From assembly GCA_963810185.1 (NCBI GenBank), contig CAWEMJ010000007.1, forward strand, positions 125,347-189,346: a DNA stretch of 64,000 nucleotides, read 5' to 3'. The stretch comes from an uncultured Gemmatimonadales bacterium (GTDB lineage Bacteria > Gemmatimonadota > Gemmatimonadetes > Gemmatimonadales > GWC2-71-9). The translations under genes and the position numbers were made by a program. The first letter of the stretch is position 1. Every line of letters starts with the position of its first letter. The notes below the pieces were generated by a model. It saw only the letters and a list, made by a program, of their open reading frames with translations. It was not told the origin of the DNA and did no database searches. Shown one piece after another: positions 29,773-35,475 of the stretch.

Positions 29773-30564
29773 AGCCCTACCTCGACCTCCTCTCCCGCAT
29801 CCTCGACACCGGCGTGGCCAAGGCCGACCGGACCGGCACCGGCACGCTGAGTGTCTTCGGGCACCAGATGCGGTTCGACCTGGCGGCGGGATTTCCCATG
29901 GTCACTACCAAGAAGCTCCACATGAAGTCCATCGTGTACGAGCTGCTCTGGTTCCTCAGAGGGCGACACCAACGTCCGGTACCTGCAGGACCATGGCGTG
30001 AAGATCTGGGACGAGTGGGCCGACCCCGCCGGCGAGCTCGGACCGGTGTATGGCCATCAGTGGCGCTCCTGGCCAACCCCGAACGGCGGGCACATCGACC
30101 AGATCAGCCAGGTGCTCGAGGAGATTCGCCGCAATCCCGACTCCCGGCGGCTGATGGTGAGCGCCTGGAACGTGGCCGACATTCCCCAGATGGCCCTGGC
30201 CCCCTGTCACGCCCTCTTCCAGTTCTACGTGGCGGACGGGAAGCTCTCCTGCCAGCTCTACCAGCGGAGCGCCGACGCCTTCCTCGGCGTGCCGTTCAAC
30301 ATCGCCTCCTATGCCCTGCTCACCCTGATGGTGGCCCAGGTGACCGGATATCAGCCAGGGGAGTTCATCCACACCTTCGGCGACGCCCACCTCTATACCA
30401 ATCACCTCGAGGCGGCGCGGCTCCAGGTATCGCGGGATCCACACCAGCTGCCCCGCATCCGGCTGAACCCCGCCGTCACCTCCCTCTTCGACTTTCAGTA
30501 CGAGGACGTCGAGCTGCTGGGCTACGCGCCGCATCCCCATATCCCGGGGAAGGTGGCGGTGTGA
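29769..30564 (+). CDS. thyA: Thymidylate synthase (indel near 29961)
   Basis: DRTGTGT, ELLWFL, GPVYG.QWR, MALAPCH, YQRSAD.FLGVPFN. Confidence 0.95.
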
Positions 30565-31058
30565 CCATCTCCCTGGTGGTGGCCGTCGCCGAGAACGGCG
30601 TGATCGGGAACGGGAACGCCCTGCCCTGGCGTCTCTCCGCCGACCTGCGCCGGTTCAAGGCGCTCACCCTGGGGCACACCGTCATCATGGGGCGGAAGAC
30701 GTTCGAGTCGATCGGGAAGGGACTGACGGGCCGGCGGAACCTGGTGGTGAGCCGGAATCCGGAGTTCCGGCCGGAGGGGGCGACGCGGGTGCCGAGCCTC
30801 GAGGTGGCGTTCGCCGAAGCGGGACCGGCGGGCGAGGTGTTCGTCATCGGCGGCGCCGACATCTACCGGCAGGCGCTCCCGCTCGCCGAGAAGATCTACC
30901 TGACGCTCGTGCGGGCTGAGCCCGAGGGAGACGCGCACTTTCATCTCCCCGAGGGAAATGAGTGGGTGCTGGTCTCCTCCGAGCTCCGCGGGGCGGACGA
31001 CAAGAACGAATTCTCCTCGGAGTTTCGGGTCTACAAGCGAAAGAGGACTGGGGACTGA
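30561..31058 (+). CDS. folA: Dihydrofolate reductase
   Basis: [31 protein letters not shown]. Confidence 0.95.
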
Positions 31059-31115
31059 GGACTGAGGACCGAGTGCACAGCCAACCTCAGTCCTCAGTCC
31101 TCGAACCTCAGTCCT
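31043..31115. repeat. Heptamer tandem repeat (GAGGACT)n with an inverted (AGTCCTC)n arm
   Basis: Read directly; a similar array at 58638-58662 and a degenerate one at 11053-11069. Confidence 0.8.
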
Positions 31116-31146
31116 GAATTCAGGTCCCCAATCCGCAAAAAATCTA

Positions 31147-31175
31147 TTGTGCTTCGCTCCCCTATTTCTTAACTT
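31147..31175 (+). promoter_or_regulatory. Sigma70-type promoter candidate for the ATP-grasp/GNAT/KamA operon
   Basis: TTGTGC-17 bp-TAACTT in an AT-rich patch. Confidence 0.55.
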
Positions 31176-31243
31176 GGTATCCGACAACAGCAAGCACGCC
31201 GGCTCGCCGCAATCCGGTGGCAGCCTTTTTGGAGGGGGAGTGT

Positions 31244-32347
31244 TTGGGAGTTCGTATCGGACTCGCCTACAACCTGAAGCCCCAAGCCGCAGCGATCGCT
31301 GCGGGAGACTTCGCCTCCCCTGTTGACCGGAACAACGCGCTCCGCGCCCTCCGCACCGATCTCGATCAACCCGATCTCTACGCCGAGTGGGACGAACCCG
31401 GCACCATCGATGCCGTCGAGCGCGCGCTGCAGCCGCTCGGCCAGGTCATCAGGCTCGAAGCCGACGCCTCCTTCCCGCAGAAGCTCGCCGATGCGCGCCC
31501 CGACTTCGTGTTCAACATCGCCGAGGGGCTCTACGGCCCCAACCGCGAGGGACACGTCCCCGCCATCTGCGAGTTCTTCGGCATCCCCTGTCACGCCTCC
31601 GATCCGCTGGCCCTCGGGCTCGCCCTCCACAAGGGGCGCGCCAAGGAGGTCATGGTGGCCCGTGGCGTTCCCACGGCGCCTTTCCGGATCGCCGAGTCGG
31701 TCGCCGACGCCGCCACCTGCACGCTCCCCTTCCCGGTGTTCGTCAAGCCGGCGTGCGAGGGGTCCGGCAAGGGCATCACGGTGGACAACCTCTGCCACGA
31801 CCGCACCGCGCTGGTCGGCCGGGTGGAGCACCTGCTCACCACCTACCGCCAACCGGTGCTCATCGAGGCCTGGCTGCCCGGAGCGGAGTTCACCGTGGCG
31901 GTGCTCGGCAACGGACCCGAGGCGCGCTGCCTTCCGATCGTCGCCATGGACTACGCGGACCTCCCCGAGGGAGCCCCGCCGATCTACGGCTACGAGGCCA
32001 AGTGGATCTGGGACACCCTCGACACTCCGCTCGACATCTACGAGTGCCCGGCCCAGATCCCGGAGTCGCTTGCCCGGCGGATCCGCGAGGCGTCGCTCGG
32101 CGCCTATCAGGCCCTGGGGTGCCGGGACTGGTGCCGCATCGACGTCCGCTGTGACGCCGACGGCAACCCGATGGTGGTCGAGCTGAATCCCCTGCCCGGC
32201 ATTCTCCCCGACCCGCGGGACAACTCCTGCTTTCCCAAGGCGGCCCGCGCCGCGGGCATGGACTACGACGAACTGATCCAGACCGTGGCGGACATCGCCT
32301 GGCGGCGGATCACCGGCCGGCGGCTGCTCGCCGAGGTGGCGGCGTGA
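31244..32347 (+). CDS. D-Ala-D-Ala ligase-like ATP-grasp enzyme 1
   Basis: Probable TTG start after GGAGG; VFNIAEG, FVKPACEGSGKGI, YGYEAKW, RIDVR, ELNPLPG. Confidence 0.88.
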   Translation: MGVRIGLAYNLKPQAAAIAAGDFASPVDRNNALRALRTDLDQPDLYAEWDEPGTIDAVERALQPLGQVIRLEADASFPQKLADARPDFVFNIAEGLYGPNREGHVPAICEFFGIPCHASDPLALGLALHKGRAKEVMVARGVPTAPFRIAESVADAATCTLPFPVFVKPACEGSGKGITVDNLCHDRTALVGRVEHLLTTYRQPVLIEAWLPGAEFTVAVLGNGPEARCLPIVAMDYADLPEGAPPIYGYEAKWIWDTLDTPLDIYECPAQIPESLARRIREASLGAYQALGCRDWCRIDVRCDADGNPMVVELNPLPGILPDPRDNSCFPKAARAAGMDYDELIQTVADIAWRRITGRRLLAEVAA

Positions 32348-33351
32348 AGGTCGTCATCCTGCACGACGGCGGCGGCGAGGAGTGGAGCGCGGCCGACGTG
32401 GCCGCCGTCCTGGGCAACATCCGGGAAATCGAGCAGATCCTCCGCGCCGCCGGCCACAGCACCGAGACGGTGCCGGTCCATCTCGGTGAGCTCGGCTGGC
32501 TCGATCGTTGCCAGAAGGCCGACCTGGTGTTCAACCTGTGCGAGGGCATCAACGGCTACTCGCGCTTCGAAGACTACGTGGTGGCCGCTCTCGAGCTGGC
32601 CCGGGTGCCGTTTACCGGCTGCCGGTCCTGGCCCATCACGATCTGCCACCGGAAGCACGTGGCCAACGCCCTCCTCCGGGACGCCGGCGTGCCGGTGCCG
32701 CCCTTCGCGCTGGTGCACGGGCCGGTGGTGCCCGAGGGCCTCCGGTTCCCGGTCATCGTCAAGCCGTCCATGGAAGACGCGAGCATCGGGATCGACGAGG
32801 GGTCGGTCTGTCACACGCCCGAGGCGCTCCTGGAGCGGCTCGCCAAGGCGACGGCGCAGTGGGAAGACGTGCTGGTGCAGGAGTACGTGGCCGGGCGGGA
32901 GTTCAACGTCGGCTTCGTGGGCAGCACCGCGCTTCCGATCTCGGAAATCGACTTCACCGGCCTCGGCGAGGGCAAGCCGCCCATCGTGACCTACGCGGCC
33001 AAGTGGACGGCGGGGAGCGACTACGACCTGCACACCGTTCCGGTGTGCCCGGCGCGGGTCGATGCGGCTACGGCCGACCTGCTGGTCCGCGTCGCAGAAC
33101 GCGCGTGGCGCGCCATGGCAAAGTGCGAGGGCTACGGCCGGGTGGACATCCGGCTCGGCGCGGACGGCACGCCGTGGGTGCTGGAACTGAATCCCGATCC
33201 CGACCTCTCGAGCGACGCCGGCCTGGCGCGCATGGGCCGGGCGTACGGGTGGGACTATTCGACGCTGGTGCTGCAGGTCGTGGACGAAGCGATGGCACGG
33301 GGCCGGGTCGCGCTCGCCGAGGGCGCCCTCGCGGGGCGAATCACCTCGTGA
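32344..33351 (+). CDS. D-Ala-D-Ala ligase-like ATP-grasp enzyme 2
   Basis: GTGA overlap; VFNLCEG, IVKPSMEDASIGI, TYAAKW, GRVDIR, ELNPDPD. Confidence 0.88.
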   Translation: MKVVILHDGGGEEWSAADVAAVLGNIREIEQILRAAGHSTETVPVHLGELGWLDRCQKADLVFNLCEGINGYSRFEDYVVAALELARVPFTGCRSWPITICHRKHVANALLRDAGVPVPPFALVHGPVVPEGLRFPVIVKPSMEDASIGIDEGSVCHTPEALLERLAKATAQWEDVLVQEYVAGREFNVGFVGSTALPISEIDFTGLGEGKPPIVTYAAKWTAGSDYDLHTVPVCPARVDAATADLLVRVAERAWRAMAKCEGYGRVDIRLGADGTPWVLELNPDPDLSSDAGLARMGRAYGWDYSTLVLQVVDEAMARGRVALAEGALAGRITS

Positions 33352-33848
33352 CGCGTGCGGCCGTGGCCACCCGCCTCCGGGCACTGACCGCCGCCGACCG
33401 CGGTCGGCTCGCGGACATTTCGCGGGCGGTCGGGCTCTTTCGCGACGACGAAGTTCCCGTGGCGCTCGAAGTCTTCGACGCCGCGGTGGCGGGTAGCCCT
33501 GATTACACGGCGCTCGGCGTCGAGGCGGACGGCCAGCTGGCGGGATGGATCTGCTGGGGACCGACGCCCTGCACCCTGGGCACCTGGGACCTCTACTGGA
33601 TGGCGGTCGATCCGGCGCTGCACGGGCTCGGACTCGGCACCCAGCTGGTCGATGAGATGGAGCGCCGCCTGCAGGGTCAGGCGCGCCTCGTGGTGGTCGA
33701 GACGGCGGGCCGGGCGGACTACGCACCGACGCGCGCGTTCTACGAGGCCCGTGGGTATCGGGCCGTCGGGCTCATCCCGGATTTCTACGCGCCGGGAGAC
33801 GACCAAGTGACGTTCGTGAAGTACTTCGAGGTCCCCGCAACAACCTGA
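33348..33848 (+). CDS. GNAT family N-acetyltransferase
   Basis: GTGA overlap; LYWMAVDPALHGLGLG (acyl-CoA motif), TRAFYEARGY. Confidence 0.9.
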   Translation: MTRAAVATRLRALTAADRGRLADISRAVGLFRDDEVPVALEVFDAAVAGSPDYTALGVEADGQLAGWICWGPTPCTLGTWDLYWMAVDPALHGLGLGTQLVDEMERRLQGQARLVVVETAGRADYAPTRAFYEARGYRAVGLIPDFYAPGDDQVTFVKYFEVPATT

Positions 33849-33863
33849 GGATGGGGTACAGGC

Positions 33864-35039
33864 ATGGAGACTTGGCAGGAAGTCCTGCGTAAGAACTCGA
33901 TCGCGTCGCTCGATACGCTCGCCAGCAAGTTCGGCGCCGAGAATTTTCCCGAGCTCGACCGGCTGCGGCTGGCGGCGGAGAATTTCGAGTTCCGGATCTC
34001 GCCGGCCATGGTGGAGCTGATCAAGTCCCCCGACGACCCGATCTGGCGCCAGTACGTGCCCACCGTCGAGGAGCTCGAAGTCCACGACGGCATCGTGGAC
34101 TCGCTGAACGAGGACGAGGACAGCCCGGTGCCGAACATCACGCACCGCTATCCCGACCGGGCGCTCTTCCTGGTCAGCCCCGTCTGCGCCAGTTACTGCC
34201 GGTTCTGCACCCGGCGGCGCAAGGTGGGCGACCCCGAGAAGATCCCGATGTCGCAGTTCGAGTCGGCCTTCCAGTACCTGGAAAGCCACACCGAAATCCG
34301 CGACGTCATCATGTCGGGCGGCGACCCGCTGCTCCTGAACGACCGGAGGCTGGACGCCATCCTGTCGCGGCTCCGGAGCATCAAGCACATCCAGATCATC
34401 CGGATCGGGAGCCGGGTCCCCTGCCACCTGCCGGAGCGGATCACCCCGGAACTCTGTGCAACGATCAAGAAGTACCACCCGGTCTGGATCAACACCCACT
34501 TCAACCACCCCGACGAGCTCACGCCGGCGGCGGTCAAGGGATTGGGCATGCTGGCCGACGCCGGCATCCCGCTCGGCTGCCAGACGGTGCTCCTCCGGGG
34601 CGTCAACGACACCCCCGAAGTGATGAAGCAGCTGATGCACCGCCTCATGATGGCCCGGGTGCGGCCCTACTACATCTACATGGCCGACCAGGTGGCGGGG
34701 GCCGAGCACTTCCGGACCAGCGTGCAGACCGGGATCCAGATCATGGAGTCGCTGCGCGGCTGGACCAGCGGTCTGGCCAACCCGCAGTTCGTCATCGACG
34801 CCCCCGGCGGCGGCGGGAAGATTCCCCTCCTGCCAGAGTACGTCATCTCGATGAGCGACGAGGAGGTCGTCCTGCGCAACTTCCGCGGCGAGCAGTTCGT
34901 CTACAAGCAGCCCAACGAGGAGCTGGCGGTGGCGGCCATGCGCCGGCGCACCGACCCGGAGTATCTCTTCCAGCCGACGCTGCAATTGAAGAAGCGGGCC
35001 AAGCGCGCCAGCAAGGTGCCCAAGCGCAAGCTGGCCTGA
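33864..35039 (+). CDS. kamA: KamA-family radical SAM protein (lysine 2,3-aminomutase-like)
   Basis: HRYPDR, CASYCRFCTRRR, SGGDPL, HFNHP, QTVLLRGVND, DAPGGGGKIP (PLP lysine). Confidence 0.9.
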   Translation: METWQEVLRKNSIASLDTLASKFGAENFPELDRLRLAAENFEFRISPAMVELIKSPDDPIWRQYVPTVEELEVHDGIVDSLNEDEDSPVPNITHRYPDRALFLVSPVCASYCRFCTRRRKVGDPEKIPMSQFESAFQYLESHTEIRDVIMSGGDPLLLNDRRLDAILSRLRSIKHIQIIRIGSRVPCHLPERITPELCATIKKYHPVWINTHFNHPDELTPAAVKGLGMLADAGIPLGCQTVLLRGVNDTPEVMKQLMHRLMMARVRPYYIYMADQVAGAEHFRTSVQTGIQIMESLRGWTSGLANPQFVIDAPGGGGKIPLLPEYVISMSDEEVVLRNFRGEQFVYKQPNEELAVAAMRRRTDPEYLFQPTLQLKKRAKRASKVPKRKLA

Positions 35040-35074
35040 GCGCCGGGCACCACTCTGGTGCAATCCTGGAAGAC

Positions 35075-35106
35075 ACCGCCCGGCCATCGCCGGGCGGTTT
35101 TGTTTT
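35075..35106 (+). terminator. Intrinsic terminator closing the KamA operon
   Basis: ACCGCCCGGC-catc-GCCGGGCGGT-TTTGTTTT. Confidence 0.85.
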
Positions 35107-35169
35107 CCCCTCTTGCCCCCGGCTCGTTTCGGTTGAACACTTGGGCTGACCCCATTTCGGAGCAGACCC

Positions 35170-35475
35170 ATGGCGCTGGGCGGCAAGAGCTGGGACGAGT
35201 GGATCGCGCAGTACGCCACCAGCCACCAGAACCCGGTCAACCGGGTCTGTCACACCATCGGTATCCCGCTCATCGCCGTTTCGATCCCGCTCTTCCTGGT
35301 CGGTATCTGGGTGCCCGGCTTCTGGCGGATTCCGCTCACGCTGTTCGTGGTGGGCTGGGTCTTCCAGTTCATCGGCCACGCGTTCGAGGGCAAGCCGCCG
35401 GAATTCTTCAAGGACTGGCGGTTTCTCTTCGTGGGGCTTCGGTGGTGGGTGGCCAAGCTGCAGGGGCGGGCGTGA
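35170..35475 (+). CDS. DUF962/Mpo1-like membrane protein
   Basis: Y..SHQNPVNR.CH..GIP, QFIGH.FEGKPP. Confidence 0.88.
   Translation: MALGGKSWDEWIAQYATSHQNPVNRVCHTIGIPLIAVSIPLFLVGIWVPGFWRIPLTLFVVGWVFQFIGHAFEGKPPEFFKDWRFLFVGLRWWVAKLQGRA

Follow-up and report, generated by a model that had tools for sequence, protein, structure and literature searches.

A four-gene operon lies in a 64,000-nucleotide stretch of DNA from an uncultured Gemmatimonadales bacterium (GenBank assembly GCA_963810185.1, contig CAWEMJ010000007.1, forward-strand positions 125,347 to 189,346). We refer to this whole stretch as the window and count positions from its first letter. The operon encodes two ATP-grasp ligases that resemble D-alanine-D-alanine ligase (Ddl), here named lig1 and lig2, an acetyltransferase of the GNAT family, and a KamA-family lysine 2,3-aminomutase. 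We found that the four genes form one functional unit, and the best explanation of our results is that this cassette is one copy of a widespread biosynthetic unit without a characterized product. Its most likely role, which we propose with moderate confidence, is to make a small acetylated amide or peptide of beta-lysine. The initial annotation of this DNA had described four genes with two GTGA overlaps and a 15-bp gap, and had named motifs in the ligases and the aminomutase. The open reading frames and the sequence itself bear out this layout, with all four genes on one strand, the overlaps at the lig1/lig2 and lig2/GNAT junctions and the gap (33849-33863) between GNAT and KamA, and all of the motifs occur in the translations (FNIAEG and AKW in lig1; FNLCEG, AKW and ELNPDPD in lig2; CASYCRFC, YYIYMAD and FVIDAPGGGGK in KamA). 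As that annotation had also stated, no product appears to be on record: we found no description of the cassette or its product in the open full-text literature searched, and an earlier comparative-genomic mention of the neighborhood is possible.

Four genes linked by synteny and by fusion

A survey of co-occurrence, proposed earlier as a check, links the four genes in two ways, by synteny within Gemmatimonadota and by domain fusion elsewhere. A profile made from a seven-row alignment retrieved 582 relatives, and we compared the loci of the best 80, of which 78 have titles beginning with Gemmatimonad-; the remaining two (72-73% identity) are titled Bacillota and Solirubrobacterales, which probably reflects binning or labelling. 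Homologues that carry organism names put the source of the window in Gemmatimonadales. In every locus with room to see it, lig2 comes after lig1 (74 of 74) and the acetyltransferase gene after lig2 (69 of 69). The fourth slot could be read in 65 loci: 53 hold a canonical KamA, one (L010) holds a partial match with 97% identity, three hold a divergent KamA-like gene and eight have no adjacent aminomutase, which leaves an aminomutase adjacent in 57 of the 65. The fixed core in Gemmatimonadota is lig1-lig2-GNAT. Across the 80 loci KamA is 75-97% identical. At the scale of whole genomes, lig1 (E<=1e-60) is present in 136 of 301 from the phylum (a count that includes three unpublished genomes, G062, G187 and G162), with 102 of 125 in the organism's own family and 30 of 69 in a second family. 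When the neighborhoods of the loci were compared, no transporter, peptidase or carrier gene recurred beside the cassette.

The divergent KamA-like gene stands directly after GNAT in its three loci (L042, 9631-10971; L023; L046) and encodes a protein of 446 aa with 27-29% identity. On TIGR00238 it reaches 155 bits, short of the cut-off, and it keeps CxxxCxxC and YFYMCD, with VCDVPFVGK replacing VIDAPGGGGK.

Beyond the phylum, the linkage is seen in fused proteins. A search of 1.84 billion representative sequences returned 992 proteins at E<=1e-30. Ten long matches were scanned: six are tandem ATP-grasp proteins, one of them named from Myxococcota, and four are fusions of KamA with an ATP-grasp domain, in both orders. 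With one fusion as probe we found 55 unrelated metagenome loci, which hold lig1 together with lig2 in 33 cases, KamA in 30 and all three in 23. In locus L098 the whole pathway takes up two genes, KamA-lig1 and then lig2-GNAT. The fusions chain the domains as KamA-lig1-lig2-GNAT, which is likely the order of the steps. The evidence for spread beyond the phylum is weaker and comes from representative proteins, the single Myxococcota name and metagenome contigs, and a 26-row alignment gave no usable conserved stretch; we treat the atlas cluster labels Ignavibacteriota, Bacteroidota, Bacillota and Chloroflexota as leads only.

A sister form of the cassette occurs in eight or nine loci (Table 1). 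It comprises lig1, lig2, a 441-aa protein, a pyridoxal phosphate (PLP) decarboxylase and KamA, and GNAT is absent. The decarboxylase matches LysA at 155.3 bits and the N-citrylornithine decarboxylase FslC at 107.7 bits, in neither case reaching the cut-off. No Pfam family matches the 441-aa protein, which has an SFGKDS motif like that of a PP-loop and a faint likeness to MurL (36.6 bits against a cut-off of 700). By analogy, a cassette with a decarboxylase would fit a small amide whose amino-acid end has been trimmed. An archaeal origin for loci of the L102-L123 type was considered and is not shown by SRP54, whose scores on the bacterial model and on the archaeal/eukaryotic one are about equal and in both cases short of the cut-off.

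The paired and fused ligases also bear on the idea of a polymer, in which the two enzymes would alternate, like the two active sites of cyanophycin synthetase, to build an oligo- or poly-amide with beta-lysine that GNAT caps or regulates. Two distinct ATP-grasp enzymes, always paired and often joined in one protein of 650-790 aa, would suit such a cycle, and the acidic residues in both donor-side pockets (described below) would suit a repeated cationic monomer. However, the cassette includes no primer-binding, membrane or export component, a depolymerase is not among the recurrent neighbors, a fourth enzyme that is a decarboxylase or an acetyltransferase better suits the finishing of a small molecule, and the Ddl fold closes over two small substrates. 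We give the polymer little chance.

Genes that resemble lig1 also stand in other surroundings. In six loci (L124, L125, L128, L143, L145 and L149) a lig1-like gene without lig2 or KamA lies in a conserved housekeeping neighborhood, with genes for a GDSL hydrolase, a class II tRNA synthetase of the Asp/Lys/Asn type, DnaJ and RmuC. A search of plasmids gave 13 rhizobial matches with 33-37% identity. On Sinorhizobium fredii NGR234 plasmid pNGR234a (L096, 6896-9978), a 36%-identical lig1 relative adjoins a CapA-family gene among insertion sequences and transposases, and with these neighbors we rejected the locus as a copy of the cassette.

An aminomutase apparently suited to lysine, outside its known contexts

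KamA exceeds the cut-off of its family model (TIGR00238, 289.1 bits against 199.2) and is the sole KamA-family gene in the organism's genome, which is 85% complete; that figure bounds every absence from this genome reported here. The best of the KamA models is the equivalog AblA (TIGR03820), on which the protein reaches 455.7 bits against a cut-off of 525.4, and the EpmB model gives 229.7 bits against 369.3. An alignment with lysine 2,3-aminomutase 2A5H (378.1 bits) confirms the CxxxCxxC motif, the PLP lysine and the two Asp positions singled out in the initial annotation (CASYCRFC/CSMYCRHC, YIYMAD/YIYQCD and FVIDAPGGGGK/FVVDAPGGGGK, cassette protein first). In the numbering of lysine 2,3-aminomutase (LAM), the Asp pair presumably binds the epsilon-amine of the substrate, and with these residues in place KamA appears suited to lysine. 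The alignment stops at residue 350. Likewise, the LAM_C profile is matched over positions 1-62 of 127; the C-terminal remainder is missing, with a basic tail instead, and the final 41 residues are basic and contain no Cys. KamA here thus lacks what we take to be the C-terminal domain with Zn-binding cysteines of the clostridial LAM tetramer. It falls under the AblA cut-off because this C-terminal part is gone and the basic tail is in its place. A basic tail (...KKRxKR...KRK[T/S/L]A, in the window 34920-35036) is conserved at the C-terminus of near-clade orthologues, and those of a distant clade end in ...EPVLVG.

Lysine fermentation, EF-P (elongation factor P) modification and ablAB, the known contexts of KamA enzymes, had been described as absent around this operon, and in agreement with this we found no AblB, EpmA or Kce in the genome. 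Kce (BKACE) gave no match, its control being matched in one genome, and a search for KamD found none, with a control that likewise matched in no genome. No EpmA exceeded the cut-off of 286.9 bits; the best match, in a 748-aa frame, has 243.7. In the EF-P loop, HRTPGNLRAF, an Asn stands at the tip, at what we take from E. coli numbering to be the modified position. The EpmB/EpmA system resembles the cassette in that a KamA-family enzyme feeds beta-lysine to an ATP-dependent ligase, but the cassette ligases are ATP-grasp enzymes and not paralogues of LysRS, the EpmB and EpmA models stay below cut-off, and the EF-P tip is Asn.

A GNAT acetyltransferase distinct from AblB

The acetyltransferase is a GNAT by its PF00583 score (Table 1), and its translation contains HGLGLG, read against the Q/R-x-x-G-x-G/A form that we take for the acetyl-CoA motif. 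AblB (TIGR03827) has no match to it at E<=0.01 and none in the genome, with a control that matched in 6 of 14 genomes, and the protein has 166 aa against the 266 positions of that model. Its best NCBIfam match is RimI (38.2 bits, cut-off 86.4), and it matches a tabtoxin resistance protein weakly (24.8 bits). An orthologue has a crystal structure, PDB 2R7H, which aligns over residues 5-156 (94 bits, E 8.9e-26), including the block C[W/Y]GPTP.T.GT[W/Y]DLYW[M/I]AV. This structural-genomics entry was deposited as 'putative D-alanine N-acetyltransferase of GNAT family'; its source is presumably a Desulfovibrio, and judged by paper titles no published function was found for the protein.

KamA and GNAT alone could make N-acetyl-beta-lysine, the osmolyte of AblA/AblB, with the ligases unrelated or loosely coupled. 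The two genes are neighbors across the 15-bp gap, AblA is the best KamA model, and N-epsilon-acetyl-beta-lysine is an established solute, known in methanogens and in some bacteria, for which PMC3543383 describes ablA and ablB in Pelobacter. Both systems join a KamA-type aminomutase and an acetyltransferase in one operon, with a cytoplasmic beta-lysine derivative as the likely end product. They differ, however, in that the cassette KamA stays below the AblA cut-off and has lost the C-terminal part of LAM_C, its GNAT matches AblB neither by model nor by length, and two ATP-grasp ligases are obligatory partners, elsewhere fused to KamA and to GNAT. Within the phylum GNAT stays with lig1-lig2 even without an adjacent KamA; elsewhere its fusion partner is lig2 rather than KamA, which is itself joined to lig1. 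We regard synthesis by KamA and GNAT alone as improbable.

Streptothricin acetyltransferases acetylate a beta-lysine amine and confer self-resistance, and GNAT might in the same way protect a producer of a secreted, antibiotic-like beta-lysine peptide. The weak tabtoxin-resistance match would agree with this. So would the Pbo toxin cluster, in which, according to PMC8473136, a KamA-like gene adjoins that of an ATP-grasp L-amino-acid ligase (pboF/pboG), in a different context. We consider such a peptide very improbable: the cassette has no exporter and no further tailoring genes, it is vertically inherited and strongly conserved (see the KamA identities and own-family lig1 counts above), and it lies among housekeeping genes (thyA, folA).

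Two ATP-grasp ligases apart from Ddl

The ligases had initially been annotated as diverging from Ddl and as lying outside any mur/dcw cluster, and models, residues and gene context all uphold this. On the best Ddl model (NF002378) lig1 scores 171.6 and lig2 120.4 against a cut-off of 243, on TIGR01205 (Ddl) they score 136.2 and 109.7 against 245.65, and all Ddl and Van models stay below cut-off for both. Ddl chains in the PDB are matched at E 2.8e-30 by lig1 and at E 1.1e-20 by lig2. A distinct Ddl is encoded elsewhere in the genome (183.6 bits on PF07478), and the cassette ligases are not the cell-wall Ddl.

Residues of the ligases were mapped by sequence alignment to the genome's own Ddl and to E. 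coli DdlB chains, not on structures, and the substrate-site roles of Glu15, Ser150, Tyr216 and Ser281 are assumed from E. coli DdlB numbering. With Ddl and Van, both ligases share PF07478, the fold and the catalytic residues of ATP-grasp enzymes. Both retain the lysines that bind ATP, Arg-x-Asp and the Mg ligands Glu-x-Asn, which vary little or not at all in the family alignments. On these residues lig1 and lig2 are predicted to be active enzymes of the ATP-grasp superfamily. The differences concern the substrate site. Both have Trp for Tyr216. In lig1 the equivalents of Glu15, Ser150 and Ser281 are kept, Glu replaces His63, and four residues are inserted after NPLPG. In lig2 there is Ala at the Glu15 column (the neighboring Asp is kept), at Ser150 and at Ser281, an acid again stands at His63, and where Ddl has its Ser281 region there is an acidic loop, ELNPDPDLSSD.

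In a quick tree, whose lig1 and lig2 labels come from our own sorting with hidden Markov models, the lig2 rows together with a third paralogue split from the lig1 rows with a value of 97 in the SH-like approximate likelihood ratio test, and true Ddl forms a long outgroup. lig1 and lig2 appear to be old paralogues, each conserved across loci. A prediction of the lig1-lig2 complex from family alignments gave a best score of 0.20 against a mark of 0.32, in a run without controls, and so speaks neither for nor against the heterodimer that the initial annotation had put forward. The third Ddl-like ligase, a 360-aa protein containing AKW and EVNPNPD, belongs to the lig2 type and lies in the same genome apart from the cassette (C8, about 370274-370840; locus L003, 1453-2535, minus strand); its divergent neighbor is a 298-aa open reading frame of no known family.

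The best-known member of the Ddl superfamily belongs to the cell wall, and the cassette ligases might put beta-lysine or a short branch on a macromolecule, be it peptidoglycan, a capsule polymer or a protein (compare RimK, D-aspartate ligase and EpmA), with GNAT capping the new amine. Other likenesses point the same way: the weak best match of GNAT to RimI, a protein acetyltransferase; the CapA-family gene beside the rhizobial plasmid relative of lig1; the faint resemblance of the 441-aa sister protein to the muropeptide epimerase MurL; and the basic tail of near-clade KamA (KRKxA end), which could be a recognition or attachment site. Yet no mur, dcw, lipid-carrier, flippase or secretion gene stands at the cassette here or recurs in other loci, and EF-P is ruled out at its usual site by the Asn at the tip and by the search for EpmA, which found none over cut-off. 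The KamA-lig1 fusion suits the channelling of a free small substrate, and the sister decarboxylase, by its LysA and FslC matches, belongs with enzymes whose substrates are amino acids in free or N-acylated form. On balance, a macromolecular target seems unlikely to us.

A conserved promoter-like footprint and leader hairpin

The initial annotation had placed a promoter candidate ahead of lig1. The footprint at this place, TTGTGC-N17-TAACTT, is conserved in most related loci, whereas a scan for the E. coli-type sigma-70 consensus found no promoter sites; we call it promoter-like because the evidence for it is conservation and the consensus scan was empty. Upstream of lig1, related loci keep CTATTG[T/C]G ... 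TTTC[T/G]TA..., and T[AG]TTGTG is found in 48 of 80 sequences. The conserved order is an A-tract, CTATTG[T/C]G, 17 bases, a TA...T hexamer, about 20-45 bases, a G+C-rich hairpin, T5-8, GTAGAGG/GGAGG and the start codon. This leader block is conserved and the surrounding intergenic DNA is not. The entire block through the Shine-Dalgarno sequence is present in 52 of the 81 sequences searched, and the G+C-rich hairpin with T5-8 and Shine-Dalgarno sequence in 53 of the 78 that have enough upstream DNA. The leader stem is paired in 86.7% of cells, against 26.7-69.2% in controls with the partner slid, and two of its pairs show compensatory changes (15 cells). In the organism's genome, an nhmmer profile of the whole leader matched at the operon site only (E 8.3e-15), and TATTG[TC]G-N15-18-TAnnnT occurs just three times.

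No Rfam family matches the leader (E<=1, 30500-35400), and no conserved tiny open reading frame for a leader peptide was seen by eye in the Gemmatimonadota leaders. The hairpin begins about 19 bases past the inferred transcription start, which makes a classical riboswitch unlikely. The hairpin and T-run are either an attenuator with an unspecified trigger or a 5' stabilizer with a U-rich enhancer.

Elsewhere in the genome, the sole other CTATTGCG...TATCTTTAG arrangement that resembles the promoter block of the operon is at C13:14494-14600. It precedes a 95-aa open reading frame and a 60-aa one with an H-box-like RHDLANPLSAL. We rejected it as a second functional promoter site and take it as a chance occurrence, adjoining as it does two small open reading frames without clear function.

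A proposed pathway to a small beta-lysine amide

Each of the rival explanations fits the evidence less well than the synthesis of a small acetylated beta-lysine amide or peptide. In this synthesis KamA would convert L-lysine to beta-lysine, and lig1, with ATP, would form an amide bond from beta-lysine to a partner that still bears its carboxylate. lig2, with an acidic acceptor loop and without the carboxylate-binding serine, would make a second amide bond, to a cationic amine, and GNAT would acetylate the remaining free amine. The product may be a small di- or tri-amide of beta-lysine, N-acetylated and cytoplasmic, that resembles a compatible solute or a polyamine. The operon would have its own promoter, and its leader hairpin with U-tract may gate transcription or stabilize the mRNA. 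We infer from the sequences the substrates, the order of the steps, the site of acetylation, the size and role of the product and the action of the leader.

A comparable pathway makes N-acetylglutaminylglutamine amide (NAGGN) with two proteins, AsnO and Ngg, the latter combining a GNAT and an ATP-grasp dipeptide ligase in one chain. In that system an acetyltransferase and an ATP-grasp ligase, sometimes fused, lead to a small N-acetylated peptide solute, which by analogy may hold for the cassette; a further enzyme there removes the charge of the terminal carboxylate, and the decarboxylase of the sister cassette could play an equivalent role. In contrast to the cassette, it has a ligase of another subfamily and only one of them, uses glutamine instead of a beta-amino acid and has no aminomutase.

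Several points weigh against the proposed pathway. The eight of 65 Gemmatimonadota loci without an adjacent aminomutase are one: five such genomes that were searched hold only a divergent KamA-like gene whose score stays under the family cut-off and which, in two of them, lies some 10-17 kb from the cassette, so that beta-lysine may not be the sole or obligatory building block. A lig1-like gene is the only one of the set in 15 of the 55 metagenome loci, including some of 13 kb, and the cassette is patchy, with lig1 in none of 99 genomes from eight other families of the phylum. In favor of the unit, metatranscriptome contigs from four runs of three studies, with 92-99% identity to the window, map to each of the four genes and cross the lig1/lig2 and GNAT/KamA junctions, but these RNA-library contigs come from close relatives, may contain DNA and cannot prove a single transcript. 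Our reading of the chemistry draws on family membership, on a small number of aligned residues and on the fusions, with residue roles taken from Ddl and LAM numbering through alignments, not structures. Finally, GNAT could serve in self-protection and not in biosynthesis.

Operon borders and flanking DNA

The four genes and their control elements (Table 1) make up an operon that is self-contained, separately regulated and functionally linked in its parts. Translation of lig1 more likely begins at an in-frame TTG (31244), with GGAGG ahead of it at 31231, than at the GTG (31217); the resulting 367 aa match the length of most close homologues. The strong terminator that had been noted 3' of the operon is present, as a 10-pair stem followed by a T-tract.

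Table 1. Positions of the operon's genes and control elements in the window, with loci of the sister cassette.
Feature	Position	Strand	Basis and details
Promoter-like footprint TTGTGC-N17-TAACTT	31147-31175	+	Phylogenetic conservation; preceded by A-tract at about 31136-31142
Leader hairpin (31201-31225) followed by T5 (31226-31230)	31201-31230	+	Fold -14.0 kcal/mol; terminator-like
Shine-Dalgarno GGAGGGGGAG	31231-31240	+	GTAGAGG or GTAGGAGG at the matching place in related loci
lig1	31244-32347	+	Open reading frame from TTG, 367 aa (alternative GTG start at 31217, 376 aa); PF07478, 118.2 bits
lig2	32344-33351	+	335 aa; PF07478, 86.4 bits
GNAT acetyltransferase	33348-33848	+	166 aa; PF00583, 45.6 bits (cut-off 20.7)
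KamA-family radical-SAM, PLP-dependent lysine 2,3-aminomutase	33864-35039	+	391 aa; PF12544, 82.3 bits; PF04055, 49.3 bits
Intrinsic terminator	35075-35108	+	10-pair stem (35075-35098), 9 G-C pairs, loop of 4, tail TTTTGTTTTCC
Sister cassette	L122:2894-5595; also L102, L103, L113, L114, L118, L121, L123		

The flanking genes are unrelated to the operon. Upstream are thyA/folA, a DUF116-like gene and an FAD oxidase; downstream are a small membrane protein and then sugar-oxidation genes. thyA is split by a +1 frameshift at the G-run AGAGGGCGAC (about 29961-29963, in the window 29955-29998): its N-terminal part reads ...ELLWFLRG and the remainder continues one base on, either an assembly homopolymer error or a pseudogene. 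Between folA and the operon (31040-31113) lies an inverted repeat of GGACTGAG / CTCAGTCC octamers, and related loci have other short tandem repeats at this spot, for example TCCGTCC, CACTTTT or CGACCATCTT units. The Rfam scan of 30500-35400 at E<=1 gave only chance-level matches to microRNA and internal ribosome entry site families, on the repeat hairpin 31013-31131.

Implications

Beta-lysine is established to enter fermentation, N-acetyl-beta-lysine, EF-P modification and some antibiotics, and to these few fates a conserved unit of four enzymes, as described here, would add another. The fusions, the reach far past one phylum and the operon's own leader point to an abundant unnamed metabolite in bacteria of soil, sediment and sludge. 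Our analysis adds to its description the conserved promoter-like footprint and leader hairpin, the structure 2R7H of a GNAT orthologue and the variant cassette with a decarboxylase. The operon is self-contained and spans less than 4 kb, and the crystal structure of the GNAT orthologue already exists.

More tentatively, and as a possibility that we hold to be doubtful, the cassette could be a two-ligase, template-independent assembly line, often in one or two fused polypeptides, for a new class of small cationic or zwitterionic beta-lysine amides, which would be acetylated here and decarboxylated to an acyl-diamine in the sister form. Such amides might act as a stress solute or polyamine substitute in many bacterial phyla, with synthesis gated by a dedicated leader terminator that would have emerged or persisted in at least two phyla.

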